Of a stretch of DNA of 64,000 nt, positions 1 to 57,445 are shown piece by piece. Each line of letters begins with the position of its first letter. Position 1 is the first letter of the stretch. Source of the DNA: Lingula anatina (taxonomy: Eukaryota > Animalia > Brachiopoda). The position numbers and the translations under genes were made by a program. The DNA is taken from assembly GCA_051362555.1 (NCBI GenBank), contig CM120648.1, positions 13,574,587 to 13,638,586 of the forward strand, read 5' to 3'. The notes beneath the pieces were generated by a model. The model saw nothing but the letters and a program-made list of their open reading frames with translations. It was not told where the DNA came from and searched no databases.

Positions 1-36
1 TCGCCGATGCCGGCGCCGTGCACTTTCAGTGTTATT
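1..36 (+). mobile_element. 3' part of a HINE/Helentron-like 5'-end insertion, cut by the window edge
   Basis: Identical to the last 36 nt of the insertions at 5820 and 8449. Confidence 0.75.
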
Positions 37-217
37 AGTTTTCTCGAATATATTGTCCGAAAAATAGTTTTGATTACACACAGTCAACTGATAATCTTAT
101 CTCAGATTTTTATTGTTATTAGGCATCATTTATACAAATTTCACAAACATTGGACCAGATTTGTGAAAATTATTAACATTTAACTATTTTATTCCATGGA
201 ATTTTCCCTTTTTCCAG

Positions 218-504
218 GTAAACCTTCCATTGCAGCCTTGTGGCTTCTTGGTTGACAGACTCTTCCTGTCTCTTTATGGCTAATGCCTATAGAAAAAACA
301 GGCATTGAAAGACAACATCAGGAGCAGTGCTCTGTCTCATCCATGTGTGCAATACGTGATATTTGGGAAGATTAAAGACATGATCAAATGGTGTGCTAAC
401 AGTCCAATTCCAGAAACCCACTGTAAGGATGAGTCTGCATCTGGTATTGGTAGTAAGGAGAAGTCTTGATTGGGTATATGTTGTATGTCAGAAGACAATA
501 ACAG
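218..504 (+). other. First copy of the 287-nt exon-like cassette (non-coding), repeated once per unit
   Basis: Upstream are TTTAAC (branch-point-like, ~35 nt before the AG), a ~58-nt AG-free zone and TTTTCCCTTTTTCCAG. The cassette ends at AACAG|GTAACT (usually AG|GTAATT). All three frames have stops. It is less AT-rich than the flanking sub-repeats. Confidence 0.55.
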
Positions 505-664
505 GTAACTTGCCACTTCCTACACAAACAAACACAAGTCATCACATCTGTTGTTTTATTTGAGATAAAATGATTTATTGGAATATTGAAATATTTGTTT
601 TTGTAAGTTTTCACTCTTCCACTATAAATGGCCATAAAATACACTTAAATTAGACACCCGTGAC

Positions 665-1184
665 GTGATAAGTTTTTGTCAGATTTTCATTGTTGTAAAG
701 CATCATTTGTACAAATTTCACAAAGATTGGACAACATATATCAAAATTATTAACGTTTAACTATTTTGATCCATGGAATTGGCCATTGTTTTCAACGTAA
801 TTTTTAGTTTTCTTGAATATATTATGCGAAAAAATCCATTTCATTAGACACAGGCAATTGATAATTTTATCTCAGAGTATTACAGTTGTTACGGTAAGCA
901 TCATTTGTACAAATATCACAAACATTAGACCACATTTGTCAAAACTATTAACATTTAACTATTTTTATCCATGGGATTTGCCATTGTTTTCAAGGTAATT
1001 TTTAGTTTTCTGAAATATATTGTCCGAAAAATAGTTTTGATTACACGCAGTTAACTGATAATGTTATCTCAGATTTTTATTGTTATTAGGCATCATTTAT
1101 ACAAATTTCACAAACATTGGACAAGATTTGTGAAAATTATTAACATTTAACTATTTTATTCCATGGAATTTTCCCTTTTTCCAG
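665..1184. repeat. Example tract of ~192-bp AT-rich sub-repeats (2 or 3 anchors per unit)
   Basis: The anchor CATCATTT(G/A)TACAAAT recurs at ~701, ~899 and 1091, and at 1668 and 1860 (192 bp apart). Many monomers contain the inverted repeat TTTCACAAA-N12-TTTGTGAAA and TCCATG(G/T)A. Confidence 0.95.
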
Positions 1185-4100
1185 GTAAGCCTTCCCTTGC
1201 AGCCTTGTGGCTTCTTGGTTGACAGACTCTACCTGTCTCTTCATTGCTAATGTCTATAGAAAAAACAGGCATTGAAAGACAACATGGAGAGCAGTAATAT
1301 ATCTCATCCATGTTTGCAATACATGATATGTGGCAAGATTAAGGACATGGTCAAATGGTGTGCTAACAGTCCTATTCCAGAAACCCACTGTAAGGATGAG
1401 TCTGCATCTGGTATTGGTAGTAAGGAGAAGTCTTGCTTGGTTATATGTTGTTTTTCAGAGAACAATAATAGGTAATTTGCCATTTCCTACACAAACAAAC
1501 ACAAGTCATCACATTTGTTGTTTTATTTGAGATAAAATGATTTATTGGAATATTGAAATATTTGTTTTTGTAAGTTCTCACTCCTCTGATATGAGTTGGC
1601 CATAAAATACACTTAAATTAAACACAGGGATGTGATAATCTTTTCTCAGATTTTTATTGTTGTAAACCATCATTTGTACAAATTTCACAAAGATTGGACC
1701 ACATTTGTCAAAATTATTAACGTTTAACTATTTTGATCCATGTAATTTGTCATTGTTTTCAATGTAATTTTTAGTTTTCTTGAATATAATGTCCGAAAAA
1801 TAGTTTTGATTACACACAGTTAACTGATAATCTTATCTCAGATTTTTATTGTTATTAGGCATCATTTATACAAATTTCACAAACATTGGACCAGATTTGT
1901 GAAAATTATTAACATTTAACTATTTTATTCCATGGAATTTTCCTTTTTCCAGGTAAGCCTTCCATTGCAGCCTTGTGGCTTCTTGGTTGACAGACTCTTC
2001 CTGTCTCGTTATGGCTAATGCCTATAGAAATGACAGGCATTGAAAGACAACATCAGGAGCAGCTGTGCTCTGTCTCATCCATGTGTGCAATACATGATAT
2101 GTGGCAAGATTAAATACATGGTCAAATGGTGTGCTAACAGTCCGATTCCAGAAACCCACTGTAAGGATGAGTCTGCATCTGGTATTGGTAGTAAGGAGAA
2201 GTCTTGATTGGGTATATGTTGTTTTTCAGAAGACAATAACAGGTAATTTGCCACTTTCTACACAAACCAACACAAGTCATCACATAAGTTGTTTTATTTG
2301 AGATAAAATGATTTATTGAAATATTGAAATATTTGTTTTTCGTAAGTTCTCACTCTTCTGATATAAATTATCAATAAAATACACTTAAATTAAACACAGG
2401 GATGTGATAACCTTTTCTCAGATTTTTATTGTTGTAAAGCATCATTTGTACAAATTTCACAAAGATTAGACCAGATTTGTGAAAATTATTAACGTTTAAC
2501 TATTTTGATCCATGTAATTTGCCATTGTTTTCAATGTAATTTTTAGTTTTCTCGAATATATTGTCCGAAAAATAGTTTTGATTACACACAGTCAACTGAT
2601 AATCTTATCTCAGATTTTTATTGTTATTAGGCATCATTTATACAAATTTCACAAACATTGGACCAGATTTGTGAAAATTATTAACATTTAACTATTTTAT
2701 TCCATGGAATTTTCCCTTTTTCCAGGTAAACCTTCCATTGCAGCCTTGTGGCTTCTTGGTTGACAGACTCTTCCTGTCTCTTTATGGCTAATGCCTATAG
2801 AAAAAACAGGCATTGAAAGACAACATGGAGAGCAGTGTTATATCTCATCCATGTGTGCAATACATGATATCTGGCAAGATTAAGGACATGGTCAAATGGT
2901 GTGCTAACAGTCCGATTCCAGAAACCCACTATAAGGATGAGTCTGCATCTGGAATTGGTAGTAAGGAGAAGTCTTGCTTGGTTATATGTTGTTTTTCAGA
3001 GAACAATAATAGGTAATTTGCCATTTCCTACACAAACAAACACAAGTCATCACATATGTTGTTTTATTTGAGATAAAATGATTTATTGGAATATTGAAAT
3101 ATTTGTTTTTCGTAAGTTCTCACTCTTCTGATATGAATTGACAGTAAAATACACTTAAATTAAACACAGGGATGTGATAATTTTTTCTCAGATTTTTATT
3201 GTTGTAAACCATCATTTGTACATATTACACAAAGATTGGACCACAATTGTCAACATTATTAACGTTTAACTATTTTGATCCATGTAATTTGCCATTGGTT
3301 CAATGTAATTTTTAGTTTTCTCGAATATATTGTCCGAAAAATAGTTTTGATTACACACAGTCAACTGATAATCGTATCTCAGATTTTTATTGTTATTAGG
3401 CATTATTTACACAAATTTCACAAACATTGGACCAGATTTGTGAAAATTATTAACATTTAACTATTTTATTCCATGGAATTTGCCCTTTTTCCAGGTAAAC
3501 CTTCCATTGCAGTCTTGTGGCTTCTTGGTTGACAGACTCTTCCTGTCTCTTTATGGCTAATGCCTATAGAAAAAACAGGCATTGAAAGACAACATCAGGA
3601 GCAGTGCTCTGTCTCATCCATGTGTCCAATACGTGATATTTGGGAAGATTAAAGACATGATCAAATGGTGTGCTAACAGTCCAATTCCAGAAACCCACTG
3701 TAAGGATGAGTCTGCATCTGGTATTGGTAGTAAGGAGAAGTATTGATTGGGTATATGTTGTATGTCAGAAGACAATAACAGGTAATTTGCCACTTCCTAC
3801 ACAAACAAACACAAGTCATCACATCTGTTGTTTTATTTGAGATAAAATGATTTATTGGAATATTGAAATATTTGTTTTTGTAAGTTTTCACTCTTCCACT
3901 ATAAATGGCCATAAAATACACTTAAATTAGACACCCGTGACGTGATAAGTTTTTGTCAGATTTTCATTGTTGTAAAGCATCATTTGTACAAATTTCACAA
4001 AGATTGGACAACATATATCAAAATTATTAACGTTTAACTATTTTGATCCATGGAATTGGCCATTGTTTTCAACGTAATTTTTTAGTTTTCTTGAATATAT

Positions 4101-5819
4101 TATGCGAAAAAATCCATTTCATTAGACACAGGCAATTGATAATCTTATCTCAGAGTATTACAGTTGTTACGGTAAGCATCATTTGTACAAATATCACAAA
4201 CATTAGACCACATTTGTCAAAACTATTAACATTTAACTATTTTTATCCATGGGATTTGCCATTGTTTTCAAGGTAATTTTTAGTTTTCTGAAATATATTG
4301 TCCAAAAAATAGTTTTGATTACACGCAGTTAACTGATAATGTTATCTCAGATTTTTATTGTTATTAGTCATCATTTATACAAATTTCACAAACATTGGAC
4401 AAGATTTGTGAAAATTATTAACATTTAACTATTTTATTCCATGGAATTTTCCCTTTTTCCAGGTAAGCCTTCCCTTGCAGCCTTGTGGCTTCTTGGTTGA
4501 CAGACTCTACCTGTCTCTTCATTGCTAATGTCTATAGAAAAAACAGGCATTGAAAGACAACATGGAGAGCAGTAATATATCTCATCCATGTTTGCAATAC
4601 ATGATATGTGGCAAGATTAAGGACATGGTCAAATGGTGTGCTAACAGTCCTATTCCAGAAACCCACTGTAAGGATGAGTCTGCATCTGGTATTGGTAGTA
4701 AGAAGTCTTGCTTGGTTATATGTTGTTTTTCAGAGAACAATAATAGGTAATTTGCCATTTCCTACACAAACAAACACAAGTCATCACATTTGTTGTTTTA
4801 TTTGAGATAAAATGATTTATTGGAATATTGAAATATTTGTTTTTGTAAGTTCTCACTCCTCTGATATGAGTTGGCCATAAAATACACTTAAATTAAACAC
4901 AGGGATGTGATAATCTTTTCTCAGATTTTTATTGTTGTAAACCATCATTTGTACAAATTTCACAAAGATTGGACCACAATTGTCAACATTATTAACGTTT
5001 AACTATTTTGATCCATGTAATTTGCCATTGGTTCAATGTAATTTTTAGTTTTCTCGAATATATTGTCCGAAAAATAGTTTTGATTACACACAGTCAACTG
5101 ATAATCGTATCTCAGATTTTTATTGTTATTAGGCATTATTTATACAAATTTCACAAACATTGGACCAGATTTGTGAAAATTATTAACATTTAACTATTTT
5201 ATTCCATGGAATTTGCCCTTTTTCCAGGTAAACCTTCCATTGCAGTCTTGTGGCTTCTTGGTTGACAGACTCTTCCTGTCTCGTTATGGCTAATGCCTAT
5301 AGAAATGACAGGCATTGAAAGACAACATCAGGAGCAGCTGTGCTCTGTCTCATCCATGTGTGCAATACATGATATGTGGCAAGATTAAATACATGGTCAA
5401 ATGGTGTGCTAACAGTCCGATTCCAGAAACCCACTGTAAGGATGAGTCTGCATCTGGTATTGGTAGTAAGGAGAAGTCTTGATTGGGTATATGTTGTTTT
5501 TCAGAAGACAATAACAGGTAATTTGCCACTTTCTACACAAACCAACACAAGTCATCACCTAAGTTGTTTTATTTGAGATAAAATGATTTATTGAAATATT
5601 GAAATATTTGTTTTTCGTAAGTTCTCACTCTTCTGATATAAATTATCAATAAAATACACTTAAATTAAACACAGGGATGTGATAACCTTTTCTCAGATTT
5701 TTATTGTTGTAAAGCATCATTTGTACAAATTTCACAAAGATTAGACCAGATTTGTGAAAATTATTAACGTTTAACTATTTTGATCCATGTAATTTGCCAT
5801 TGTTTTCAATGTAATTTTT

Positions 5820-5866
5820 ATGTACAGACACAGATGTGTCTGTACATATTGCCATCACCTGCGTCT

Positions 5867-5897
<31 letters not shown>

Positions 5898-5948
5898 CCG
5901 ATGCCGATGCCGTCGCCGATGCCGGCGCCGTGCACTTTCAGTGTTATT
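5820..5948 (+). mobile_element. 129-bp truncated 5' end of a non-autonomous Helentron (HINE/DINE-1/pearl-like architecture)
   Basis: The empty site in other units is GTAATTTTT|AGTTTTCTC, a T-run target. The insert is the palindrome ATGTACAGACACA-GA-TGTGTCTGTACAT, then ATTGCCATCAC, then a GTC/GCC microsatellite. This T-run, IR hairpin, short core, microsatellite order is the known HINE left-end layout. Confidence 0.75.
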
Positions 5949-8448
5949 AGTTTTCTCGAATATATTGTCCGAAAAATAGTTTTGATTACACACAGTCAAC
6001 TGATAATCTTATCTCAGATTTTTATTGTTATTAGGCATCATTTATACAAATTTCACAAACATTGGACCAGATTTGTGAAAATTATTAACATTTAACTATT
6101 TTATTCCATGGAATTTTCCCTTTTTCCAGGTAAACCTTCCATTGCAGCCTTGTGGCTTCTTGGTTGACAGACTCTTCCTGTCTCTTTATGGCTAATGCCT
6201 ATAGAAAAAACAGGCATTGAAAGACAACATGGAGAGCAGTGTTATATCTCATCCATGTGTGCAATACATGATATGTGGCAAGATTAAGGACATGGTCAAA
6301 TGGTGTGCTAACAGTCCGATTCCAGAAACCCACTATAAGGATGAGTCTGCATCTGGAATTGGTAGTAAGGAGAAGTCTTGCTTGGTTATATGTTGTTTTT
6401 CAGAGAACAATAATAGGTAATTTACCATTTCCTACACAAACAAACACAAGTCATCACATATGTTGTTTTATTTGAGATAAAATGATTTATTGGAATATTG
6501 AAATATTTGTTTTTCGTAAGTTCTCACTCTTCTGATATGAATTGACAATAAAATACACTTAAATTAAACACAGGGATGTGATAATTTTTTCTCAGATTTT
6601 TATTGTTGTAAAGCATCATTTGTACATATTACACAAAGATTGGACCACAATTGTCAACATTATTAACGTTTAACTATTTTGATCCATGTAATTTGCCATT
6701 GGTTCAATGTAATTTTTAGTTTTCTCGAATATATTGTCCGAAAAATAGTTTTGATTACACACAGTCAACTGATAATCGTATCTCAGATTTTTATTGTTAT
6801 TAGGCATTATTTACACAAATTTCACAAACATTGGACCAGATTTGTGAAAATTATTAACATTTAACTATTTTATTCCATGGAATTTGCCCTTTTTCCAGGT
6901 AAACCTTCCATTGCAGTCTTGTGGCTTCTTGGTTGACAGACTCTTCCTGTCTCTTTATGGCTAATGCCTATAGAAAAAACAGGCATTGAAAGACAACATC
7001 AGGAGCAGTGCTCTGTCTCATCCATGTGTCCAATACGTGATATTTGGGAAGATTAAAGACATGATCAAATGGTGTGCTAACAGTCCAATTCCAGAAACCC
7101 ACTGTAAGGATGAGTCTGCATCTGGTATTGGTAGTAAGGAGAAGTATTGATTGGGTATATGTTGTATGTCAGAAGACAATAACAGGTAATTTGCCACTTC
7201 CTACACAAACAAACACAAGTCATCACATTTGTTGTTTTATTTGAGATAAAATGATTTATTGGAATATTGAAATATTTGTTTTTGTAAGTTTTCACTCTTC
7301 CACTATAAATGGCCATAAAATACACTTAAATTAGACACCCGTGACGTGATAAGTTTTTGTCAGATTTTCATTGTTGTAAAGCATCATTTGTACAAATTTC
7401 ACAAAGATTGGACAACATATATCAAAATTATTAACGTTTAACTATTTTGATCCATGGAATTGGCCATTGTTTTCAACGTAATTTTTAGTTTTCTTCAATA
7501 TATTATGCGAAAAAATCCATTTCATTAGACACAGGCAATTGATAATCTTATCTCAGAGTATTACAGTTGTTACAGTAAGCATCATTTGTACAAATATCAC
7601 AAACATTAGACCACATTTGTCAAAACTATTAACATTTAACTATTTTTATCCATGGGATTTGCCATTGTTTTCAAGGTAATTTTTAGTTTTCTGAAATATA
7701 TTGTCCGAAAAATAGTTTTGATTACACACAGTTAACTGATAATCTTATCTCAGATTTTTATTGTTATTAGGCATCATTTATACAAATTTCACAAACATTG
7801 GACCAGATTTGTGAAAATTATTAACATTTAACTATTTTATTCCATGGAATTTTCCTTTTTCCAGGTAAGCCTTCCATTGCAGCCTTGTGGCTTCTTGGTT
7901 GACAGACTCTTCCTGTCTCGTTATGGCTAATGCCTATAGAAATGACAGGCATTGAAAGACAACATCAGGAGCAGCTGTGCTCTGTCTCATCCATGTGTGC
8001 AATACATGATATGTGGCAAGATGAAATACATGGTCAAATGGTGTGCTAACAGTCCGAATCCAGAATCCCACTGTAAGGATGAGTCTGCATCTGGTATTGG
8101 TAGTAAGGAGAAGTCTTGATTGGGTATATGTTGTTTTTCAGAAGACAATAACAGGTAATTTGCCACTTTCTACACAAACCAACACAAGTCATCACCTAAG
8201 TTGTTTTATTTGAGATAAAATGATTTATTGAAATATTTGTTTTTCGTAAGTTCTCACTCTTCTGATATAAATTATCAATAAAATACACTTAAATTAAACA
8301 CAGGGATGTGATAACCTTTTCTCAGATTTTTATTGTTGTAAAGCATCATTTGTACAAATTTCACAAAGATTAGACCAGATTTGTGAAAATTATTAACGTT
8401 TAACTATTTTGATCCATGTAATTTGCCATTGTTTTCAATGTAATTTTT

Positions 8449-8568
8449 ATGTACAGACACAGATGTGTCTGTACATATTGCCATCACCTGCGTCTGTCGT
8501 CGCCGTCGTCGCCGTCGCCGATGCCGATGCCGTCGCCGATGCCGGCGCCGTGCACTTTCAGTGTTATT
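8449..8568 (+). mobile_element. 120-bp copy of the same HINE-like insertion
   Basis: Same site and sequence, with one GTCGTCGCC 9-mer fewer. Confidence 0.75.
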
Positions 8569-11500
8569 AGTTTTCTCGAATATATTGTCCGAAAAATAGT
8601 TTTGATTACACACAGTCAACTGATAATCTTATCTCAGATTTTTATTGTTATTAGGCATCATTTATACAAATTTCACAAACATTGGACCAGATTTGTGAAA
8701 ATTATTAACATTTAACTATTTTATTCCATGGAATTTTCCCTTTTTCCAGGTAAACCTTCCATTGCAGCCTTGTGGCTTCTTGGTTGACAGACTCTTCCTG
8801 TCTCTTTATGGCTAATGCCTATAGAAAAAACAGGCATTGAAAGACAACATGGAGAGCAGTGTTATATCTCATCCATGTGTGCAATACATGATATGTGGCA
8901 AGATTAAGGACATGGTCAAATGGTGTGCTAACAGTCCGATTCCAGAAACCCACTATAAGGATGAGTCTGCATCTGGAATTGGTAGTAAGGAGAAGTCTTG
9001 CTTGGTTATATGTTGTTTTTCAGAGAACAATAATAGGTAATTTGCCATTTCCTACACAAACAAACACAAGTCATCACATATGTTGTTTTATTTGAGATAA
9101 AATGATTTATTGGAATATTGAAATATTTGTTTTTCGTAAGTTCTCACTCTTCTGATATGAATTGACAATAAAATACACTTAAATTAAACACAGGGATGTG
9201 ATAATTTTTTCTCAGATTTTTATTGTTGTAAAGCATCATTTGTACATATTACACAAAGATTGGACCACAATTGTCAACATTATTAACGTTTAACTATTTT
9301 GATCCATGTAATTTGCCATTGGTTCAATGTAATTTTTAGTTTTCTCGAATATATTGTCCGAAAAATAGTTTTGATTACACACAGTCAACTGATAATCGTA
9401 TCTCAGATTTTTATTGTTATTAGGCATTATTTACACAAATTTCACAAACATTGGACCAGATTTGTGAAAATTATTAACATTTAACTATTTTATTCCATGG
9501 AATTTGCCCTTTTTCCAGGTAAACCTTCCATTGCAGTCTTGTGGCTTCTTGGTTGACAGACTCTTCCTGTCTCTTTATGGCTAATGCCTATAGAAAAAAC
9601 AGGCATTGAAAGACAACATCAGGAGCAGTGCTCTGTCTCATCCATGTGTCCAATACGTGATATTTGGGAAGATTAAAGACATGATCAAATGGTGTGCTAA
9701 CAGTCCAATTCCAGAAACCCACTGTAAGGATGAGTCTGCATCTGGTATTGGTAGTAAGGAGAAGTATTGATTGGGTATATGTTGTATGTCAGAAGACAAT
9801 AACAGGTAATTTGCCACTTCCTACACAAACAAACACAAGTCATCACATTTGTTGTTTTATTTGAGATAAAATGATTTATTGGAATATTGAAATATTTGTT
9901 TTTGTAAGTTTTCACTCTTCCACTATAAATGGCCATAAAATACACTTAAATTAGACACCCGTGACGTGATAAGTTTTTGTCAGATTTTCATTGTTGTAAA
10001 GCATCATTTGTACAAATTTCACACAAAGATTGGACAACATATATCAAAATTATTAACGTTTAACTATTTTGATCCATGGAATTGGCCATTGTTTTCAACG
10101 TAATTTTTAGTTTTCTTCAATATATTATGCGAAAAAATCCATTTCATTAGACACAGGCAATTGATAATCTTATCTCAGAGTATTACAGTTGTTACAGTAA
10201 GCATCATTTGTACAAATATCACAAACATTAGACCACATTTGTCAAAACTATTAACATTTAACTATTTTTATCCATGGGATTTGCCATTGTTTTCAAGGTA
10301 ATTTTTAGTTTTCTGAAATATATTGTCCGAAAAATAGTTTTGATTACACACAGTTAACTGATAATGTTATCTCAGATTTTTATTGTTATTAGGCATCATT
10401 TATACAAATTTCACAAACATTGGACAAGATTTGTGAAAATTATTAACATTTAACTATTTTATTCCATGGAATTTTCCCTTTTTCCAGGTAAGCCTTCCCT
10501 TGCAGCCTTGTGGCTTCTTGGTTGACAGACTCTACCTGTCTCTTCATTGCTAATGTCTATAGAAAAAACAGGCATTGAAAGACAACATGGAGAGCAGTAA
10601 TATATCTCATCCATGTTTGCAATACATGATATGTGGCAAGATTAAGGACATGGTCAAATGGTGTGCTAACAGTCCTATTCCAGAAACCCACTGTAAGGAT
10701 GAGTCTGCATCTGGTATTGGTAGTAAGGAGAAGTCTTGATTGGGTATATGTTGTTTTTCAGAGAACAATAATAGGTTATTTACCACTTCCTACACAAACC
10801 AACACAAGTCATCACATTTGTTGTTTTATTAGAGATAAAATGATTTATTGAAATATTGAAATATTTGTTTTTCGTAAGTTTCCACTCTTCTGATATGAAT
10901 TGGCAATAAAATACACTTAAATTAAACACAGGGATGTGATAAGCTTTTCTCAGATTTTTATTGTTGTAAAGCATCATTTGTACAAATTTCACAAAGATTG
11001 GACCACAGTTGTCACAATTATTAATGTTTAACTATTTTGATCCATGGAATTTGCCATTGTTTTCAAGGTAATTTTTAGTTTTCTCGAATATATTATCCGA
11101 AAAATAGTTTTGATTACACACAGTCAACTGATAATCGTATCTCAAATTTTTACATTTATTAGGCATCATTTACACAAATTTCACAAAGATTGGATCAGAT
11201 TTGTGAAAATTATTAACATTTAACTATTTTATTCCATGGAATTTTTCCTTTTTCCAGGTAAACCTTCCATTGCAGCCTTGTGGCTTCTTGGTTGACAGAC
11301 TCTTCCTGTCTCTTTATGGCTAATGCCTATAGAAAAAAATAGGCATTGAAAGACAACATCAGGAGCAGTGCTCTGCCTCATCCATGTGTGCAATACATGA
11401 TATGTGGCAAGATGAAGGACATGGTCAAATGGTGTGCTAACAGTCCGAATCCAGAAACCCTCTGTAAGGAGGAATCTGCATCTTCCATCTGCATCTGGTA

Positions 11501-37400: not shown

Positions 37401-37529
37401 AATTTTTTCTCAGATTTTTATTGTTGTAAACCATCATTTGTACGTATTACACAAAGATTGGACCACAATTGTCAACATTATTAACGTTTAACTATTTTGA
37501 TCCATGTAATTTGCCATTGGTTCAATGTA

Positions 37530-40500: not shown

Positions 40501-42600
40501 GACAATAACAGGTAACTTGCCACTTCCTACACAAACAAACACAAGTCATCACATCTGTTGTTTTATTTGAGATAAAATGATTTATTGGAATATTGAAATA
40601 TTTGTTTTTGTAAGTTTTCACTCTTCCACTATAAATGGCCATAAAATACACTTAAATTAGACACCCGTGACGTGATAAGTTTTTGTCAGATTTTCATTGT
40701 TGTAAAGCATCATTTGTACAAATTTCACAAAGATTGGACAACATATATCAAAATTATTAACGTTTAACTATTTTGATCCATGGAATTGGCCATTGTTTTC
40801 AACGTAATTTTTAGTTTTCTTGAATATATTATGCGAAAAAATCCATTTCATTAGACACAGGCAATTGATAATTTTATCTCAGAGTATTACAGTTGTTACG
40901 GTAAGCATCATTTGTACAAATATCACAAACATTAGACCACATTTGTCAAAACTATTAACATTTAACTATTTTTATCCATGGGATTTGCCATTGTTTTCAA
41001 GGTAATTTTTAGTTTTCTGAAATATATTGTCCGAAAAATAGTTTTGATTACACGCAGTTAACTGATAATGTTATCTCAGATTTTTATTGTTATTAGGCAT
41101 CATTTATACAAATTTCACAAACATTGGACAAGATTTGTGAAAATTATTAACATTTAACTATTTTATTCCATGGAATTTTCCCTTTTTCCAGGTAAGCCTT
41201 CCCTTGCAGCCTTGTGGCTTCTTGGTTGACAGACTCTACCTGTCTCTTCATTGCTAATGTCTATAGAAAAAACAGGCATTGAAAGACAACATGGAGAGCA
41301 GTAATATATCTCATCCATGTTTGCAATACATGATATGTGGCAAGATTAAGGACATGGTCAAATGGTGTGCTAACAGTCCTATTCCAGAAACCCACTGTAA
41401 GGATGAGTCTGCATCTGGTATTGGTAGTAAGGAGAAGTCTTGCTTGGTTATATGTTGTTTTTCAGAGAACAATAATAGGTAATTTGCCATTTCCTACACA
41501 AACAAACACAAGTCATCACATTTGTTGTTTTATTTGAGATAAAATGATTTATTGGAATATTGAAATATTTGTTTTTGTAAGTTCTCACTCCTCTGATATG
41601 AGTTGGCCATAAAATACACTTAAATTAAACACAGGGATGTGATAATCTTTTCTCAGATTTTTATTGTTGTAAACCATCATTTGTACAAATTTCACAAAGA
41701 TTGGACCACATTTGTCAAAATTATTAACGTTTAACTATTTTGATCCATGTAATTTGTCATTGTTTTCAATGTAATTTTTAGTTTTCTTGAATATAATGTC
41801 CGAAAAATAGTTTTGATTACACACAGTTAACTGATAATCTTATCTCAGATTTTTATTGTTATTAGGCATCATTTATACAAATTTCACAAACATTGGACCA
41901 GATTTGTGAAAATTATTAACATTTAACTATTTTATTCCATGGAATTTTCCTTTTTCCAGGTAAGCCTTCCATTGCAGCCTTGTGGCTTCTTGGTTGACAG
42001 ACTCTTCCTGTCTCGTTATGGCTAATGCCTATAGAAATGACAGGCATTGAAAGACAACATCAGGAGCAGCTGTGCTCTGTCTCATCCATGTGTGCAATAC
42101 ATGATATGTGGCAAGATTAAATACATGGTCAAATGGTGTGCTAACAGTCCGATTCCAGAAACCCACTGTAAGGATGAGTCTGCATCTGGTATTGGTAGTA
42201 AGGAGAAGTCTTGATTGGGTATATGTTGTTTTTCAGAAGACAATAACAGGTAATTTGCCACTTTCTACACAAACCAACACAAGTCATCACATAAGTTGTT
42301 TTATTTGAGATAAAATGATTTATTGAAATATTGAAATATTTGTTTTTCGTAAGTTCTCACTCTTCTGATATAAATTATCAATAAAATACACTTAAATTAA
42401 ACACAGGGATGTGATAACCTTTTCTCAGATTTTTATTGTTGTAAAGCATCATTTGTACAAATTTCACAAAGATTAGACCAGATTTGTGAAAATTATTAAC
42501 GTTTAACTATTTTGATCCATGTAATTTGCCATTGTTTTCAATGTAATTTTTAGTTTTCTCGAATATATTGTCCGAAAAATAGTTTTGATTACACACAGTC
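37530..42600 (+). repeat. 2,508-bp three-unit higher-order repeat, 2 copies
   Basis: ORFs 37895/40403, 38771/41279 and 39600/42108 are 2,508 apart. Boundaries are approximate. Confidence 0.9.
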
Positions 42601-45600
42601 AACTGATAATCTTATCTCAGATTTTTATTGTTATTAGGCATCATTTATACAAATTTCACAAACATTGGACCAGATTTGTGAAAATTATTAACATTTAACT
42701 ATTTTATTCCATGGAATTTTCCCTTTTTCCAGGTAAACCTTCCATTGCAGCCTTGTGGCTTCTTGGTTGACAGACTCTTCCTGTCTCTTTATGGCTAATG
42801 CCTATAGAAAAAACAGGCATTGAAAGACAACATGGAGAGCAGTGTTATATCTCATCCATGTGTGCAATACATGATATCTGGCAAGATTAAGGACATGGTC
42901 AAATGGTGTGCTAACAGTCCGATTCCAGAAACCCACTATAAGGATGAGTCTGCATCTGGAATTGGTAGTAAGGAGAAGTCTTGCTTGGTTATATGTTGTT
43001 TTTCAGAGAACAATAATAGGTAATTTGCCATTTCCTACACAAACAAACACAAGTCATCACATATGTTGTTTTATTTGAGATAAAATGATTTATTGGAATA
43101 TTGAAATATTTGTTTTTCGTAAGTTCTCACTCTTCTGATATGAATTGACAGTAAAATACACTTAAATTAAACACAGGGATGTGATAATTTTTTCTCAGAT
43201 TTTTATTGTTGTAAACCATCATTTGTACATATTACACAAAGATTGGACCACAATTGTCAACATTATTAACGTTTAACTATTTTGATCCATGTAATTTGCC
43301 ATTGGTTCAATGTAATTTTTAGTTTTCTCGAATATATTGTCCGAAAAATAGTTTTGATTACACACAGTCAACTGATAATCGTATCTCAGATTTTTATTGT
43401 TATTAGGCATTATTTATACAAATTTCACAAACATTGGACCAGATTTGTGAAAATTATTAACATTTAACTATTTTATTCCATGGAATTTGCCCTTTTTCCA
43501 GGTAAACCTTCCATTGCAGTCTTGTGGCTTCTTGGTTGACAGACTCTTCCTGTCTCTTTATGGCTAATGCCTATAGAAAAAACAGGCATTGAAAGACAAC
43601 ATCAGGAGCAGTGCTCTGTCTCATCCATGTGTGCAATACGTGATATTTGGGAAGATTAAAGACATGATCAAATGGTGTGCTAACAGTCCAATTCCAGAAA
43701 CCCACTGTAAGGAGGAATCTGCATCTTCCATCTGCATCTGGTATTGGTAGTAAGGAGAAGTATTGATTGGGTATATGTTGTATGTCAGAAGACAATAACA
43801 GGTAATTTGCCACTTCCTACACAAACAAACACAAGTCATCACATCTGTTGTTTTATTTGAGATAAAATGATTTATTGGAATATTGAAATATTTGTTTTTG
43901 TAAGTTTTCACTCTTCCACTATAAATGGCCATAAAATACACTTAAATTAGACACCCGTGACGTGATAAGTTTTTGTCAGATTTTCATTGTTGTAAAGCAT
44001 CATTTGTACAAATTTCACAAAGATTGGACAACATATATCAAAATTATTAACGTTTAACTATTTTGATCCATGGAATTGGCCATTGTTTTCAACGTAATTT
44101 TTTAGTTTTCTTGAATATATTATGCGAAAAAATCCATTTCATTAGACACAGGCAATTGATAATCTTATCTCAGAGTATTACAGTTGTTACGGTAAGCATC
44201 ATTTGTACAAATATCACAAACATTAGACCACATTTGTCAAAACTATTAACATTTAACTATTTTTATCCATGGGATTTGCCATTGTTTTCAAGGTAATTTT
44301 TAGTTTTCTGAAATATATTGTCCAAAAAATAGTTTTGATTACACGCAGTTAACTGATAATGTTATCTCAGATTTTTATTGTTATTAGTCATCATTTATAC
44401 AAATTTCACAAACATTGGACAAGATTTGTGAAAATTATTAACATTTAACTATTTTATTCCATGGAATTTTCCCTTTTTCCAGGTAAGCCTTCCCTTGCAG
44501 CCTTGTGGCTTCTTGGTTGACAGACTCTACCTGTCTCTTCATTGCTAATGTCTATAGAAAAAACAGGCATTGAAAGACAACATGGAGAGCAGTAATATAT
44601 CTCATCCATGTTTGCAATACATGATATGTGGCAAGATTAAGGACATGGTCAAATGGTGTGCTAACAGTCCTATTCCAGAAACCCACTGTAAGGATGAGTC
44701 TGCATCTGGTATTGGTAGTAAGAAGTCTTGCTTGGTTATATGTTGTTTTTCAGAGAACAATAATAGGTAATTTGCCATTTCCTACACAAACAAACACAAG
44801 TCATCACATTTGTTGTTTTATTTGAGATAAAATGATTTATTGGAATATTGAAATATTTGTTTTTGTAAGTTCTCACTCCTCTGATATGAGTTGGCCATAA
44901 AATACACTTAAATTAAACACAGGGATGTGATAATCTTTTCTCAGATTTTTATTGTTGTAAACCATCATTTGTACAAATTTCACAAAGATTGGACCACAAT
45001 TGTCAACATTATTAATGTTTAACTATTTTGATCCATGTAATTTGCCATTGGTTCAATGTAATTTTTAGTTTTCTCGAATATATTGTCCGAAAAATAGTTT
45101 TGATTACACACAGTCAACTGATAATCGTATCTCAGATTTTTATTGTTATTAGGCATTATTTATACAAATTTCACAAACATTGGACCAGATTTGTGAAAAT
45201 TATTAACATTTAACTATTTTATTCCATGGAATTTGCCCTTTTTCCAGGTAAACCTTCCATTGCAGTCTTGTGGCTTCTTGGTTGACAGACTCTTCCTGTC
45301 TCGTTATGGCTAATGCCTATAGAAATGACAGGCATTGAAAGACAACATCAGGAGCAGCTGTGCTCTGTCTCATCCATGTGTGCAATACATGATATGTGGC
45401 AAGATTAAATACATGGTCAAATGGTGTGCTAACAGTCCGATTCCAGAAACCCACTGTAAGGATGAGTCTGCATCTGGTATTGGTAGTAAGGAGAAGTCTT
45501 GATTGGGTATATGTTGTTTTTCAGAAGACAATAACAGGTAATTTGCCACTTTCTACACAAACCAACACAAGTCATCACCTAAGTTGTTTTATTTGAGATA

Positions 45601-45839
45601 AAATGATTTATTGAAATATTGAAATATTTGTTTTTCGTAAGTTCTCACTCTTCTGATATAAATTATCAATAAAATACACTTAAATTAAACACAGGGATGT
45701 GATAACCTTTTCTCAGATTTTTATTGTTGTAAAGCATCATTTGTACAAATTTCACAAAGATTAGACCAGATTTGTGAAAATTATTAACGTTTAACTATTT
45801 TGATCCATGTAATTTGCCATTGTTTTCAATGTAATTTTT

Positions 45840-45886
45840 ATGTACAGACACAGATGTGTCTGTACATATTGCCATCACCTGCGTCT

Positions 45887-45917
<31 letters not shown>

Positions 45918-45968
45918 CCGATGCCGATGCCGTCGCCGATGCCGGCGCCGTGCACTTTCAGTGTTATT
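45840..45968 (+). mobile_element. 129-bp copy of the HINE-like insertion
   Basis: Paralog of 5820-5948 at offset 40,020. Confidence 0.75.
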
Positions 45969-48468
45969 AGTTTTCTCGAATATATTGTCCGAAAAATAGT
46001 TTTGATTACACACAGTCAACTGATAATCTTATCTCAGATTTTTATTGTTATTAGGCATCATTTATACAAATTTCACAAACATTGGACCAGATTTGTGAAA
46101 ATTATTAACATTTAACTATTTTATTCCATGGAATTTTCCCTTTTTCCAGGTAAACCTTCCATTGCAGCCTTGTGGCTTCTTGGTTGACAGACTCTTCCTG
46201 TCTCTTTATGGCTAATGCCTATAGAAAAAACAGGCATTGAAAGACAACATGGAGAGCAGTGTTATATCTCATCCATGTGTGCAATACATGATATGTGGCA
46301 AGATTAAGGACATGGTCAAATGGTGTGCTAACAGTCCGATTCCAGAAACCCACTATAAGGATGAGTCTGCATCTGGAATTGGTAGTAAGGAGAAGTCTTG
46401 CTTGGTTATATGTTGTTTTTCAGAGAACAATAATAGGTAATTTACCATTTCCTACACAAACAAACACAAGTCATCACATATGTTGTTTTATTTGAGATAA
46501 AATGATTTATTGGAATATTGAAATATTTGTTTTTCGTAAGTTCTCACTCTTCTGATATGAATTGACAATAAAATACACTTAAATTAAACACAGGGATGTG
46601 ATAATTTTTTCTCAGATTTTTATTGTTGTAAAGCATCATTTGTACATATTACACAAAGATTGGACCACAATTGTCAACATTATTAACGTTTAACTATTTT
46701 GATCCATGTAATTTGCCATTGGTTCAATGTAATTTTTAGTTTTCTCGAATATATTGTCCGAAAAATAGTTTTGATTACACACAGTCAACTGATAATCGTA
46801 TCTCAGATTTTTATTGTTATTAGGCATTATTTACACAAATTTCACAAACATTGGACCAGATTTGTGAAAATTATTAACATTTAACTATTTTATTCCATGG
46901 AATTTGCCCTTTTTCCAGGTAAACCTTCCATTGCAGTCTTGTGGCTTCTTGGTTGACAGACTCTTCCTGTCTCTTTATGGCTAATGCCTATAGAAAAAAC
47001 AGGCATTGAAAGACAACATCAGGAGCAGTGCTCTGTCTCATCCATGTGTCCAATACGTGATATTTGGGAAGATTAAAGACATGATCAAATGGTGTGCTAA
47101 CAGTCCAATTCCAGAAACCCACTGTAAGGATGAGTCTGCATCTGGTATTGGTAGTAAGGAGAAGTATTGATTGGGTATATGTTGTATGTCAGAAGACAAT
47201 AACAGGTAATTTGCCACTTCCTACACAAACAAACACAAGTCATCACATTTGTTGTTTTATTTGAGATAAAATGATTTATTGGAATATTGAAATATTTGTT
47301 TTTGTAAGTTTTCACTCTTCCACTATAAATGGCCATAAAATACACTTAAATTAGACACCCGTGACGTGATAAGTTTTTGTCAGATTTTCATTGTTGTAAA
47401 GCATCATTTGTACAAATTTCACAAAGATTGGACAACATATATCAAAATTATTAACGTTTAACTATTTTGATCCATGGAATTGGCCATTGTTTTCAACGTA
47501 ATTTTTAGTTTTCTTCAATATATTATGCGAAAAAATCCATTTCATTAGACACAGGCAATTGATAATCTTATCTCAGAGTATTACAGTTGTTACAGTAAGC
47601 ATCATTTGTACAAATATCACAAACATTAGACCACATTTGTCAAAACTATTAACATTTAACTATTTTTATCCATGGGATTTGCCATTGTTTTCAAGGTAAT
47701 TTTTAGTTTTCTGAAATATATTGTCCGAAAAATAGTTTTGATTACACACAGTTAACTGATAATCTTATCTCAGATTTTTATTGTTATTAGGCATCATTTA
47801 TACAAATTTCACAAACATTGGACCAGATTTGTGAAAATTATTAACATTTAACTATTTTATTCCATGGAATTTTCCTTTTTCCAGGTAAGCCTTCCATTGC
47901 AGCCTTGTGGCTTCTTGGTTGACAGACTCTTCCTGTCTCGTTATGGCTAATGCCTATAGAAATGACAGGCATTGAAAGACAACATCAGGAGCAGCTGTGC
48001 TCTGTCTCATCCATGTGTGCAATACATGATATGTGGCAAGATGAAATACATGGTCAAATGGTGTGCTAACAGTCCGAATCCAGAATCCCACTGTAAGGAT
48101 GAGTCTGCATCTGGTATTGGTAGTAAGGAGAAGTCTTGATTGGGTATATGTTGTTTTTCAGAAGACAATAACAGGTAATTTGCCACTTTCTACACAAACC
48201 AACACAAGTCATCACCTAAGTTGTTTTATTTGAGATAAAATGATTTATTGAAATATTTGTTTTTCGTAAGTTCTCACTCTTCTGATATAAATTATCAATA
48301 AAATACACTTAAATTAAACACAGGGATGTGATAACCTTTTCTCAGATTTTTATTGTTGTAAAGCATCATTTGTACAAATTTCACAAAGATTAGACCAGAT
48401 TTGTGAAAATTATTAACGTTTAACTATTTTGATCCATGTAATTTGCCATTGTTTTCAATGTAATTTTT

Positions 48469-48588
48469 ATGTACAGACACAGATGTGTCTGTACATATTG
48501 CCATCACCTGCGTCTGTCGTCGCCGTCGTCGCCGTCGCCGATGCCGATGCCGTCGCCGATGCCGGCGCCGTGCACTTTCAGTGTTATT
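48469..48588 (+). mobile_element. 120-bp copy of the HINE-like insertion
   Basis: Paralog of 8449-8568 at offset 40,020. Confidence 0.75.
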
Positions 48589-51500
48589 AGTTTTCTCGAA
48601 TATATTGTCCGAAAAATAGTTTTGATTACACACAGTCAACTGATAATCTTATCTCAGATTTTTATTGTTATTAGGCATCATTTATACAAATTTCACAAAC
48701 ATTGGACCAGATTTGTGAAAATTATTAACATTTAACTATTTTATTCCATGGAATTTTCCCTTTTTCCAGGTAAACCTTCCATTGCAGCCTTGTGGCTTCT
48801 TGGTTGACAGACTCTTCCTGTCTCTTTATGGCTAATGCCTATAGAAAAAACAGGCATTGAAAGACAACATGGAGAGCAGTGTTATATCTCATCCATGTGT
48901 GCAATACATGATATGTGGCAAGATTAAGGACATGGTCAAATGGTGTGCTAACAGTCCGATTCCAGAAACCCACTATAAGGATGAGTCTGCATCTGGAATT
49001 GGTAGTAAGGAGAAGTCTTGCTTGGTTATATGTTGTTTTTCAGAGAACAATAATAGGTAATTTGCCATTTCCTACACAAACAAACACAAGTCATCACATA
49101 TGTTGTTTTATTTGAGATAAAATGATTTATTGGAATATTGAAATATTTGTTTTTCGTAAGTTCTCACTCTTCTGATATGAATTGACAATAAAATACACTT
49201 AAATTAAACACAGGGATGTGATAATTTTTTCTCAGATTTTTATTGTTGTAAACCATCATTTGTACATATTACACAAAGATTGGACCACAATTGTCAACAT
49301 TATTAACGTTTAACTATTTTGATCCATGTAATTTGCCATTGGTTCAATGTAATTTTTAGTTTTCTCGAATATATTGTCCGAAAAATAGTTTTGATTACAC
49401 ACAGTCAACTGATAATCGTATCTCAGATTTTTATTGTTATTAGGCATTATTTACACAAATTTCACAAACATTGGACCAGATTTGTGAAAATTATTAACAT
49501 TTAACTATTTTATTCCATGGAATTTGCCCTTTTTCCAGGTAAACCTTCCATTGCAGTCTTGTGGCTTCTTGGTTGACAGACTCTTCCTGTCTCTTTATGG
49601 CTAATGCCTATAGAAAAAACAGGCATTGAAAGACAACATCAGGAGCAGTGCTCTGTCTCATCCATGTGTCCAATACGTGATATTTGGGAAGATTAAAGAC
49701 ATGATCAAATGGTGTGCTAACAGTCCAATTCCAGAAACCCACTGTAAGGATGAGTCTGCATCTGGTATTGGTAGTAAGGAGAAGTATTGATTGGGTATAT
49801 GTTGTATGTCAGAAGACAATAACAGGTAATTTGCCACTTCCTACACAAACAAACACAAGTCATCACATTTGTTGTTTTATTTGAGATAAAATGATTTATT
49901 GGAATATTGAAATATTTGTTTTTGTAAGTTTTCACTCTTCCACTATAAATGGCCATAAAATACACTTAAATTAGACACCCGTGACGTGATAAGTTTTTGT
50001 CAGATTTTCATTGTTGTAAAGCATCATTTGTACAAATTTCACACAAAGATTGGACAACATATATCAAAATTATTAACGTTTAACTATTTTGATCCATGGA
50101 ATTGGCCATTGTTTTCAACGTAATTTTTAGTTTTCTTCAATATATTATGCGAAAAAATCCATTTCATTAGACACAGGCAATTGATAATCTTATCTCAGAG
50201 TATTACAGTTGTTACAGTAAGCATCATTTGTACAAATATCACAAACATTAGACCACATTTGTCAAAACTATTAACATTTAACTATTTTTATCCATGGGAT
50301 TTGCCATTGTTTTCAAGGTAATTTTTAGTTTTCTGAAATATATTGTCCGAAAAATAGTTTTGATTACACACAGTTAACTGATAATGTTATCTCAGATTTT
50401 TATTGTTATTAGGCATCATTTATACAAATTTCACAAACATTGGACAAGATTTGTGAAAATTATTAACATTTAACTATTTTATTCCATGGAATTTTCCCTT
50501 TTTCCAGGTAAGCCTTCCCTTGCAGCCTTGTGGCTTCTTGGTTGACAGACTCTACCTGTCTCTTCATTGCTAATGTCTATAGAAAAAACAGGCATTGAAA
50601 GACAACATGGAGAGCAGTAATATATCTCATCCATGTTTGCAATACATGATATGTGGCAAGATTAAGGACATGGTCAAATGGTGTGCTAACAGTCCTATTC
50701 CAGAAACCCACTGTAAGGATGAGTCTGCATCTGGTATTGGTAGTAAGAAGTCTTGCTTGGTTATATGTTGTTTTTCAGAGAACAATAATAGGTAATTTGC
50801 CATTTCCTACACAAACAAACACAAGTCATCACATTTGTTGTTTTATTTGAGATAAAATGATTTATTGGAATATTGAAATATTTGTTTTTGTAAGTTCTCA
50901 CTCCTCTGATATGAGTTGGCCATAAAATACACTTAAATTAAACACAGGGATGTGATAATCTTTTCTCAGATTTTTATTGTTGTAAACCATCATTTGTACA
51001 AATTTCACAAAGATTGGACCACATTTGTCAAAATTATTAACGTTTAACTATTTTGATCCATGTAATTTGTCATTGTTTTCAATGTAATTTTTAGTTTTCT
51101 TGAATATAATGTCCGAAAAATAGTTTTGATTACACACAGTTAACTGATAATCTTATCTCAGATTTTTATTGTTATTAGGCATCATTTATACAAATTTCAC
51201 AAACATTGGACCAGATTTGTGAAAATTATTAACATTTAACTATTTTATTCCATGGAATTTTCCTTTTTCCAGGTAAGCCTTCCATTGCAGCCTTGTGGCT
51301 TCTTGGTTGACAGACTCTTCCTGTCTCGTTATGGCTAATGCCTATAGAAATGACAGGCATTGAAAGACAACATCAGGAGCAGCTGTGCTCTGTCTCATCC
51401 ATGTGTGCAATACATGATATGTGGCAAGATTAAATACATGGTCAAATGGTGTGCTAACAGTCCGATTCCAGAAACCCACTGTAAGGATGAGTCTGCATCT

Positions 51501-51864
51501 GGTATTGGTAGTAAGGAGAAGTCTTGATTGGGTATATGTTGTTTTTCAGAAGACAATAACAGGTAATTTGCCACTTTCTACACAAACCAACACAAGTCAT
51601 CACCTAAGTTGTTTTATTTGAGATAAAATGATTTATTGAAATATTGAAATATTTGTTTTTCGTAACTTCTCACTCTTCTGATATAAATTATCAATAAAAT
51701 ACACTTAAATTAAACACAGGGATGTGATAACCTTTTCTCAGATTTTTATTGTTGTAAAGCATCATTTGTACAAATTTCACAAAGATTAGACCAGATTTGT
51801 GAAAATTATTAACGTTTAACTATTTTGATCCATGTAATTTGCCATTGTTTTCAATGTAATTTTT

Positions 51865-51984
51865 ATGTACAGACACAGATGTGTCTGTACATATTGCCAT
51901 CACCTGCGTCTGTCGTCGCCGTCGTCGCCGTCGCCGATGCCGATGCCGTCGCCGATGCCGGCGCCGTGCACTTTCAGTGTTATT
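51865..51984 (+). mobile_element. 120-bp copy of the HINE-like insertion
   Basis: Same sequence and insertion site as the other copies. Confidence 0.75.
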
Positions 51985-52934
51985 AGTTTTCTCGAATATA
52001 TTGTCCGAAAAATAGTTTTGATTACACACAGTCAACTGATAATCTTATCTCAGATTTTTATTGTTATTAGGCATCATTTATACAAATTTCACAAACATTG
52101 GACCAGATTTGTGAAAATTATTAACATTTAACTATTTTATTCCATGGAATTTTCCCTTTTTCCAGGTAAACCTTCCATTGCAGCCTTGTGGCTTCTTGGT
52201 TGACAGACTCTTCCTGTCTCTTTATGGCTAATGCCTATAGAAAAAACAGGCATTGAAAGACAACATGGAGAGCAGTGTTATATCTCATCCATGTGTGCAA
52301 TACATGATATGTGGCAAGATTAAGGACATGGTCAAATGGTGTGCTAACAGTCCGATTCCAGAAACCCACTATAAGGATGAGTCTGCATCTGGAATTGGTA
52401 GTAAGGAGAAGTCTTGCTTGGTTATATGTTGTTTTTCAGAGAACAATAATAGGTAATTTACCATTTCCTACACAAACAAACACAAGTCATCACATATGTT
52501 GTTTTATTTGAGATAAAATGATTTATTGGAATATTGAAATATTTGTTTTTCGTAAGTTCTCACTCTTCTGATATGAATTGACAATAAAATACACTTAAAT
52601 TAAACACAGGGATGTGATAATTTTTTCTCAGATTTTTATTGTTGTAAACCATCATTTGTACATATTACACAAAGATTGGACCACAATTGTCAACATTATT
52701 AACGTTTAACTATTTTGATCCATGTAATTTGCCATTGGTTCAATGTAATTTTTAGTTTTCTCGAATATATTGTCCGAAAAATAGTTTTGATTACACACAG
52801 TCAACTGATAATCGTATCTCAGATTTTTATTGTTATTAGGCATTATTTACACAAATTTCACAAACATTGGACCAGATTTGTGAAAATTATTAACATTTAA
52901 CTATTTTATTCCATGGAATTTGCCCTTTTTCCAG

Positions 52935-53221
52935 GTAAACCTTCCATTGCAGTCTTGTGGCTTCTTGGTTGACAGACTCTTCCTGTCTCTTTATGGCTAA
53001 TGCCTATAGAAAAAACAGGCATTGAAAGACAACATCAGGAGCAGTGCTCTGTCTCATCCATGTGTCCAATACGTGATATTTGGGAAGATTAAAGACATGA
53101 TCAAATGGTGTGCTAACAGTCCAATTCCAGAAACCCACTGTAAGGATGAGTCTGCATCTGGTATTGGTAGTAAGGAGAAGTATTGATTGGGTATATGTTG
53201 TATGTCAGAAGACAATAACAG
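52935..53221 (+). other. Last copy of the 287-nt exon-like cassette
   Basis: TTTGCCCTTTTTCCAG|GTAAAC ... AACAG|GTAATT. Sequence ~90 nt downstream starts to diverge from the array consensus. Confidence 0.55.
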
Positions 53222-53329
53222 GTAATTTGCCACTTCCTACACAAACAAACACAAGTCATCACATCTGTTGTTTTATTTGAGATAAAATGATTTATTGGAA
53301 TATTGAAATAATTGTTTTTGTAAATTCTT

Positions 53330-54545
53330 ACTCCTCAGGTATCAGTTGCTAATAAAATACACTTAAAATTAAAAACAGTAAACTAATACATTTTTTTCAG
53401 ATTTTTACTGTTGTGAAGCATCATTTGTACAAATTTTACAAACATTTGACCACATTTGTCAAAATTATTAATTTTTAACTATTTTAATCAATTGAATTTG
53501 CCTTTGTTTTCAGTGTAATTTTCAGTTACTCAAATATATTGTCTGAAAAATCCTTTTCATTAGACACAGGCAGCTGATAAGTTGTACTCAAATTATTATC
53601 GTGTTTAAGTTCAAGCTGTTCAAATTTCATGAAATTTGGAGTAGATTTGTCAAAATTATCAATGTTTCAACTTTTTTTTATCCATGAAAATTGCCAGTCT
53701 TTTTAACATAATTTTAAGTTTTTGTTTGAAAAATAACTTTCATTACACACAGTCTACTGATAATCTTATATCAGATTTTTTTTAAGCTTCATTTATTCAA
53801 ATTTGACAAACACTAGACCAGATTTGTCAAAATTATTAATGTTTAGCTGTTTTAAGCCTTGGAATTTGCCACTTTTTTAATGTAATTTTCAGTTTTCTTG
53901 AATATATTGTCAAAAAAAAAAACAAAAAACTTTTCATTAGACACAGGCAGCTGATGAGCTTATTTCAGATTATTTCATTTGTTAAGCTACAGTTGTAAGT
54001 TTCACAAACATCCAAGTCCAAGTAACATCCAAGTTCATTGCACAGAGCTAACGTCTAACTATTTAAATCTGGGGATTTTGCCTGTTAAAAAAATACGTTT
54101 TGATTAATCACAGTCAACTGATAAGGTCATCACAGATTTTTTTGTTTGTAAGCCTCATTTGTACAAATTTCACAAACATTGGACTAGATTTGTCTAAATT
54201 ATTAACGCCAAACTTTCTTAAGCTATGGTTTTTCAAAGTAATGTTAAGTTTTTATCAAATATACTGACGGTAAATGAAAACACATCAGAAAACTTTCTTG
54301 TACTTTTTTATCGAGAACCGATACCAACCATATAAATGAGTACAAATGCACTTGTTTGGTCATCTTGTTTGACTGAATAATAGGCCATTTTTCACACGAA
54401 AACTGCTATTTTCTTAATGTTCCAAAGGAACTAAAAATATTATTTGATAAATAAGTAATGCATTTTCATTGACTGTTAGTATATATTGTCCAAAAATACA
54501 AATTCATTAGACACAGTCAACTGATAAACTTATCCCAGTCTCTTT
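53330..54545 (+). repeat. Degenerate core-less ~190-bp monomers (about 5 plus a partial) at the array edge
   Basis: Decayed anchors (TTCATTAGACACAG..CTGATAA, CAAATTTCACAAACATT..AGATTTGTCAAAATTATTAA) recur at ~53.42, 53.62, 53.79, 54.0, 54.16 and 54.51 kb. Confidence 0.9.
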
Positions 54546-57345: not shown

Positions 57346-57445
57346 ATTTTCTGCTTTTTGGCTGTATTTTTGACAGCTTTGTTGCCTTGTTTTGAAATGT
57401 ACCTCAATCCAAATTTCAGAGTCCATACAAGAGCAAATCGCATAG

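Follow-up and report, generated by a model that had tools for sequence, protein, structure and literature searches.

Layout and splice signals of the array

The 64,000-nucleotide (nt) stretch of Lingula anatina DNA analysed here, referred to throughout as the window (contig CM120648.1 of assembly GCA_051362555.1, positions 13,574,587 to 13,638,586), carries a macrosatellite in which an exon-like core alternates with a spacer of shorter repeats (coordinates in Table 1). An initial annotation of this DNA had described 63 same-strand, exon-like cassettes, and these are recovered by blastn with the first core as query, which yields 63 copies, all on the + strand, between 218 and 53,221, with 82-99.7% identity to the query. 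The left window edge cuts through the array, which extends beyond it. Cores have a GC content of 41%, vs 27.5% for the spacers, and measure 287 nt (33 copies), 290 (11), 288 (7), 300 (5), 284 (3) or 301, 291, 252 and 168 nt (one each), adding up to 18,041 nt, and the spacer mostly spans about 480 or 680 nt. Only 31 of the cores are distinct, and mean identity among units is 94.6%. A 7.0-kb block (7,031 nt) at 3,705-10,735 recurs at 43,725-50,755, at least 99% identical and offset by 40,020 nt, and a second recurrent block of 8.5 kb (8,541 nt) shows the same level of identity (at least 99%) at an offset of 6,175. Both recurrences reflect either recent long-range duplication or an effect of the assembly. 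Since the units descend from one, as indicated by the 31 distinct cores and the block duplications, the 63 splice signals are not independent evidence.

The splice signals themselves are where they had been described. A 3' splice site is present in 62 of the 63 units, whose cores start as CAG/GTAAAC (38) or CAG/GTAAGC (24; the slash marks the exon boundary), with an AG-free run of 56-57 nt upstream in all 62 full units and TTAAC at -38 to -34 in most of them, a motif counted 306 times across the window. The 5' splice site expected about 287 nt later, which is also the commonest core length, is equally recognisable: GT stands directly 3' of all 63 cores, as GTAATT (52), GTTATT (7), GTAACT (3) or GTTTTT (1), with AG before it in 62. 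In addition, the GTAA(A/G)C at the start of the exon is a putative donor that would be regenerated upon splicing, so that acceptor, exon-start donor and downstream donor are juxtaposed in all 62 full units. By a simple count of matches to the U1 consensus, the exon-start donor equals or exceeds the downstream one in 20 of 24 GTAAGC units and in 12 of 37 GTAAAC units.

The spacer is built from a 192-nt subunit and, at some places, from what appears to be the left end of a transposon. The left end listed in Table 1 has further copies at 8,449, 45,840, 48,469 and 51,865, which gives five whole copies in the array, plus one truncated by the window start. A T run, a 12-bp subterminal inverted repeat (subTIR), an inverted repeat and a microsatellite make up the left-end anatomy of non-autonomous Helentrons, according to PMC7492417 and PMC4067079, and PMC12628747 ascribes arrays with many 5' ends to faulty rolling-circle copying. 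Because no convincing pair of 3' subTIR and palindrome was found right of the array (scan with up to 3 mismatches, hairpin scan), the spacer is called HINE-derived and not an intact element (HINE and Cg_HINE of oyster are compared below). Metagenome scans with the left-end hairpin and with the core returned 0 matches each.

No core follows 87 of the 150 subunit ends, at which the same TTAAC motifs are present, and 17 of these 87 core-less ends read TTTTCAAG/GTAATT behind an AG-free run of 57-64 nt. Because of these 17 ends the acceptor signals are assigned to the spacer repeat, the branch point and AG-free zone appearing to be inherited from the 192-nt subunit and AG/GTAA probably as well. The tract has a pyrimidine fraction of 0.76 ahead of cores vs 0.67 ahead of AG-bearing plain subunits. 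That the core is itself a decayed subunit is ruled out, the subunit profile having no match on the core; the core profile has no additional match right of the array.

Core-to-core joints in RNA reads

Reads of four out of nine RNA runs bearing the same species label (X1, X4, X6 and X8; 6-26% of each run was read) were aligned to the last unit at 88% likeness. X8 is an oligo-dT, unstranded library, and X1, X4 and X6 are stranded. From X8 came 956 reads, with a mean depth of 271 on the core vs 108 upstream and 113 downstream, and 106 reads that cross a core-to-core junction. The junction predicted from the DNA, main donor to main acceptor, is found in 46 reads with 31 starts; the main donor also joins the acceptor at +18 (11 reads), a variant acceptor at the +18 register (32) and CTATAG/ (3), the donor at 53,140 joins the main acceptor (6) and the donor at 53,170 the variant acceptor (8). 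One acceptor register serves two donors and one donor serves four acceptors; all three donors are GT and three of the four acceptors are verified as AG in the window, the fourth, the variant, having a sequence absent from the window. Because several donor-acceptor combinations are seen, beyond the main joint, we read the X8 joints as splicing. Fifteen of the 18 X8 joints divide into six core-to-core joints, seven register jumps between subunits and two unexplained joints, and a seventh core-to-core joint was tabulated separately.

The stranded runs contributed 56 (X1), 19 (X4) and 55 (X6) reads, mostly partial and nearly all with the first mate on the '-' strand, which under the usual protocol points to + strand RNA, as the initial annotation had proposed. 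Per 1,000 million letters, depth over 52,966-53,105 is 148 in X8, 2.6 in X1, 1.2 in X6 and 0 in X4. In five X1 reads the main acceptor is joined to a foreign upstream exon, the sequence of which does not occur in the window. This exon (read ends at 52,932) is purine-rich and, by eye, ends with an ATG in GCCATGG context, whose frame meets a stop just inside the core if the main acceptor is used. Another loose end in X1 (8 reads, behind 53,160) was considered as a third diverged core start and rejected, 312 of 500 shuffles being as good.

A more distant relative is seen in X6, where 26 reads exit at a GT near 53,191 and continue into a divergent core start (aligned with 52,942-52,966; 0 of 500 shuffles as good), of which only about 20 of 25 aligned letters match the core and which appears to begin with GT. 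As this relative is likewise spliced head to tail, the layout is older than the present array. The +13 core variant is carried by units 14, 19, 26, 33, 34 and 52, and two of its letters (53,147 and 53,150) are near-fixed in X8, X1 and X6 reads, for which reason it likely preserves an older state of the core.

The donor at the exon start raises the question of whether the units form a ladder of recursive splice sites, that is, recursive-splicing (RS) exons inside a long intron which are mostly removed via the regenerated donor, the reads being intermediates or leaky inclusion. The presence of GTAA(A/G)C at the start of 62 of 62 exons, its U1 match counts, the apparent GT at the start of the X6 relative and the agreement with the RS-exon anatomy set out in PMC8605326 are all consistent with such a ladder. 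However, inclusion is abundant in oligo-dT reads, although skipping of intronic ratchet exons is described as almost invariable; plain subunits also have GTAA at the equivalent position, which may therefore be an inherited feature; and spacers of 0.5-0.7 kb are too short for long introns. We consider a recursive ladder very improbable.

Table 1. Features of the array and its right flank (window coordinates, all on the + strand).
Feature	Position	Remarks
Macrosatellite, 63 units (about 770, 965 or 900 nt)	1..53221	open at left window edge
HINE-like left end: T run, 12-bp inverted repeat with 4-nt loop, (GTC)n/(GCCGAT)n microsatellite	5815..5945	followed by 192-nt subunit
Unit 39	32676..32843	first 119 nt of core gone (deletion from subunit end into core position 120); no acceptor
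AT-rich spacer subunit of 192 nt, some 2-3 in each unit	52721..52911	150 ends in all as far as 54,300; likely HINE-type central repeat
Main 3' splice site (branch-point-like TTAAC, then pyrimidine tract and CAG)	52897..52934	coincides with end of 192-nt subunit
Core exon, last copy (unit 63)	52935..53221	reference for read comparison; 62 other copies from 218 on
Exon-start GTAAAC/GTAAGC, putative donor regenerated upon splicing	52935..52940	RS-exon anatomy, from sequence only
Alternative acceptor TTGCAG/ (+18)	52948..52953	X8, 11 reads; 40 further at same register with variant letters not in window
Alternative acceptor CTATAG/	53004..53010	X8, 3 reads
Alternative donor GTAAGG	53140..53145	X8, 6 reads; X1, 3 reads (1 start)
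Alternative donor GTAAGG	53170..53175	X8, 8 reads
Main donor GTAATT	53222..53227	X8, 92 junction reads across four acceptors
Tail of older, core-less subunits	53319..54555	74-87% identical to array subunit; no recognised 3' subTIR or palindrome
Single-copy flank matched by X8 read end	54919..54938	20/20 letters, 18 reads
Decayed HINE-like left end outside the array	55626..55700	no 192-nt subunit after it

Farther to the right, at 57,396-57,655, short GC-richer open frames (60-69 aa, one of them acidic) lie behind TTTCAG; Pfam is empty for them, and they are possibly an exon or a transposon fragment.

Evidence for and against a non-coding repeat RNA

In our view there is a real family here of non-coding RNAs, spliced from repeat exons and resting on a transposon satellite. 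Close relatives of the array are transcribed and spliced core to core, so that the array likely encodes a non-coding RNA of repeated 200-290-nt exons, and this RNA would likely be a multivalent protein-binding scaffold; for this reading as a whole we estimate a probability of about 0.5. The splicing at the heart of the initial annotation is supported by the reads of sister copies; what that account overlooked is the Helentron/HINE-like origin of the spacer and acceptor signals, as well as the exon-start donor of the full units.

A number of observations weigh against this reading, and the first concern the splice sites and the core. In 40 of 40 distinct units AG and GT stay unchanged, yet the same is true of 66-77% of the neighbouring columns, and the donor has T at +3 in 5 of 40; within the array, conservation at the splice sites does not significantly exceed that of neighbouring columns, so that the expected contrast with their surroundings was not seen. 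The fold of the core is not beyond chance either (z of -0.15, and -1.5 to +1.1 in seven cores, relative to shuffles). In the reads, about 40% of the X8 depth continues unspliced into the spacer, 150-nt reads span two cores at most, and two X8 joints, 52,847 to 53,192 (8 reads) and 53,170 to 53,495 (4 reads), are neither GT-AG nor in subunit register. X8 is moreover unstranded and was compared with no DNA run. Finally, none of the 956 X8 reads is at least 99% like unit 63, and 64 are 95-99% like it; 22 of 23 X8 majority alleles are present in some window unit, with at most 16 of 23 in the best single unit. The reads stem from a sister haplotype or array with copies 88-99% alike. The idea that the array is spliced into a repeat RNA is therefore borne out as far as core-to-core joints go, and not for the exact copies in the window.

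The expressed copies are tied to the neighbourhood of the window by X8 reads that end on single-copy flank. These reads jump about 1.3 kb (53,574 to about 54,910) from one GGCAGC motif to another, the ends not being GT-AG, which is likely a DNA deletion in an allele or duplicate. The copies expressed in X8 are accordingly likely those of the orthologous array, or of a duplicate that takes in the flank. If it came from DNA, a flank depth near 110 would require a large DNA share for 63 copies (225-fold if the whole run were DNA, assuming a 450-Mb genome); as this depends on the total copy number, DNA may still contribute to the depth.

The joints might also come from single-core back-splices, i.e. 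circles, or be artefacts of DNA deletion or template switching. Short reads cannot separate a joint of exon n to n+1 from a circle, two joints show microhomology (6 and 4 letters), and no DNA control is at hand; at the main joint the six letters fit either side, and taken alone it could be a deletion or template switch, a further point against splicing. But the library is oligo-dT, the multiple donor-acceptor pairs are all GT-AG, and the foreign exon of X1 is joined at the same, main acceptor, which makes circles or artefacts highly improbable.

Alternatively, the cores could derive from a repeat protein gene, as its decayed coding exons, or belong to a protein-coding gene with upstream exons to the left of the window, as exons that carry stops or 3' untranslated regions. 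The non-coding character claimed for the cassette is upheld by several tests. Stops occur in all six frames of every distinct core, among the cores listed, and none of the 62 full units offers a stop-free exon with a length that is a multiple of 3, with any of the three acceptors seen in reads. The ratio of non-synonymous to synonymous differences (pN/pS) among distinct units ranges from 0.70 to 1.41 across the six frames and is not significantly below 1 (lowest p=0.18), and in a virtual chain of spliced cores the ATG frames reach at most 64 aa. Pfam on five frames was empty and two homologue searches with the longest core frame found no protein homologue, both negatives being weak as evidence.

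The best case for a coding past is the combination of seven A's and the +18 acceptor, which gives a symmetric 270-nt exon (90 codons) that has a single stop in 7 of 62 units. Among shuffles, 4.1% have one stop or fewer and 0.6% are stop-free, and the stop site reads as a sense codon in 21 of 63 units. By eye, the ATG of the foreign X1 exon lies in this same frame. This 270-nt frame has nevertheless a pN/pS of 0.78 (p=0.22), the X8 allele places another stop in it, fixed in 229 of 229 reads, the common X6 alleles give a stop as well (by eye), and frame, acceptor and allele were picked post hoc. A coding ancestor of the core is possible and unsupported, and the coding or untranslated-region explanation as such is improbable. 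A cluster of structured non-coding RNAs (snoRNA, miRNA, hammerhead or tRNA) was also considered and rejected, with 0 Rfam matches at gathering score, 0 tRNAs and a fold z about 0.

The main rival to the scaffold is a neutral by-product, in which a transposon-driven satellite copied an exon along with its splice signals, sits in a transcribed region and is passively spliced into functionless RNA. The acceptor signals inherited from the subunit agree with it, as do the loose and partial splicing, the core without structure and, again to the detriment of the scaffold, splice sites that are not specially conserved and a core no less variable than its flanks (34% variable columns vs 23-40%). Helitron-type elements are furthermore reported, in PMC12628747, to capture host DNA and to form arrays with many 5' ends. 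On the other hand, head-to-tail splicing persists in the X6 relative although only about 20 of 25 letters match at the exon start, GT and AG are kept in 62 of 62 full cores, and the tract is richer in pyrimidine ahead of cores than in plain subunits. A neutral by-product seems somewhat unlikely, and a scaffold, argued by analogy, would be the likeliest function.

Proposed origin and comparison with known systems

The formation of the locus could be pictured in six steps. The first is visible in the window, where the spacer consists of 192-nt subunits with HINE-like left ends; a T-rich subunit end would then have turned into a 3' splice site ahead of a 287-nt segment of foreign origin. Subsequent amplification by unequal exchange, perhaps with rolling-circle copying, is suggested by the duplicated blocks and the recurrence of left ends. 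The fourth step is seen for sister copies, which give + strand RNA with GT-AG core joints, at levels that differ more than 50-fold among samples. Taken jointly, these four steps are highly probable. Variable choice of donor and acceptor, together with incomplete splicing, may next produce RNAs with differing numbers of modules, and by analogy with the RRD of FIRRE the modules may finally bind many nuclear proteins at once. Given the first four steps, we would put such multivalent binding of nuclear proteins at slightly short of an even chance.

More speculatively, and we think rather unlikely, the central satellite of a transposon could act as an exon factory, supplying invertebrate non-coding RNAs with at least 60 near-identical exons, in which competing donors, including the regenerated one, would set the number of modules and splicing would dial the valency of the scaffold in a sample-specific manner. 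A literature search that covered few subscription papers, with most hits judged from their entries, turned up no account of such a locus, nor of a satellite of Helentron type in which one unit is spliced to the next. Repeat-module long non-coding RNAs are known mainly from mammals and their origin is an open question; here a plausible route is visible, in which the repeat of a rolling-circle transposon gives the acceptor, the unit amplifies and an RNA of many exons is read from the satellite. Constraint can be tested by comparing the diverged relatives, in which the splicing is the same, and the 62 natural RS-exon variants are available for tests of donor competition. The locus also illustrates that a spliced gene can hide in masked satellite DNA.

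The closest resemblance in architecture is to FIRRE, for whose RRD PMC4820808 and PMC9074896 give evidence of nuclear localisation and hnRNPU binding. As described there, FIRRE RNA is non-coding and spliced, several of its exons contain one local repeat while its introns contain others, its isoforms vary in the number of repeat exons and its within-species repeat identity is 91-93%, vs 94.6% here. It differs in having 0-6 RRD exons per human isoform, against at least 63 here (about ten times), and in that here exon and intron together form the unit of a macrosatellite based on a transposon repeat. The array is built like FIRRE and is not assigned to the FIRRE, Xist or Rsx families, as nothing suggests homology and there is no Rfam match at gathering score.

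In Xist and Rsx, the repeats lie in tandem inside large exons, whereas each module here is its own exon. What they have in common with the proposed RNA is that they are long and spliced, rich in tandem repeats and equipped with many protein-binding motifs, as described in bioRxiv 10.1101/630475.

The spacer resembles HINE and the Cg_HINE of oyster in its T run, 12-bp subTIR and inverted repeat, microsatellite, AT-rich central repeat array and several 5' ends per array (PMC7492417, PMC4067079 and PMC12628747). It differs from them in that no 3' subTIR or palindrome was found here and in its monomer of 192 nt vs 138-181 nt; oyster Cg_HINE arrays have at most 29 monomers, and a spliced exon, present in every unit here, does not appear in the HINE descriptions compared.

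With RS-exons and ratchet points, as presented in PMC8605326, the units share the side-by-side acceptor and donor, a frame-breaking cryptic exon and a downstream donor; they differ in being 62 tandem copies with short spacers that are included in oligo-dT RNA, their recursive use being only putative. The 'mirage' minisatellites of amphioxus are also tandem copies with splice signals that undergo concerted evolution, but in PMC3087553 they comprise one exon edge (10-160 bp) and splicing is reportedly undisturbed, while in the present array whole exons are copied and both of their splice sites are used in reads.

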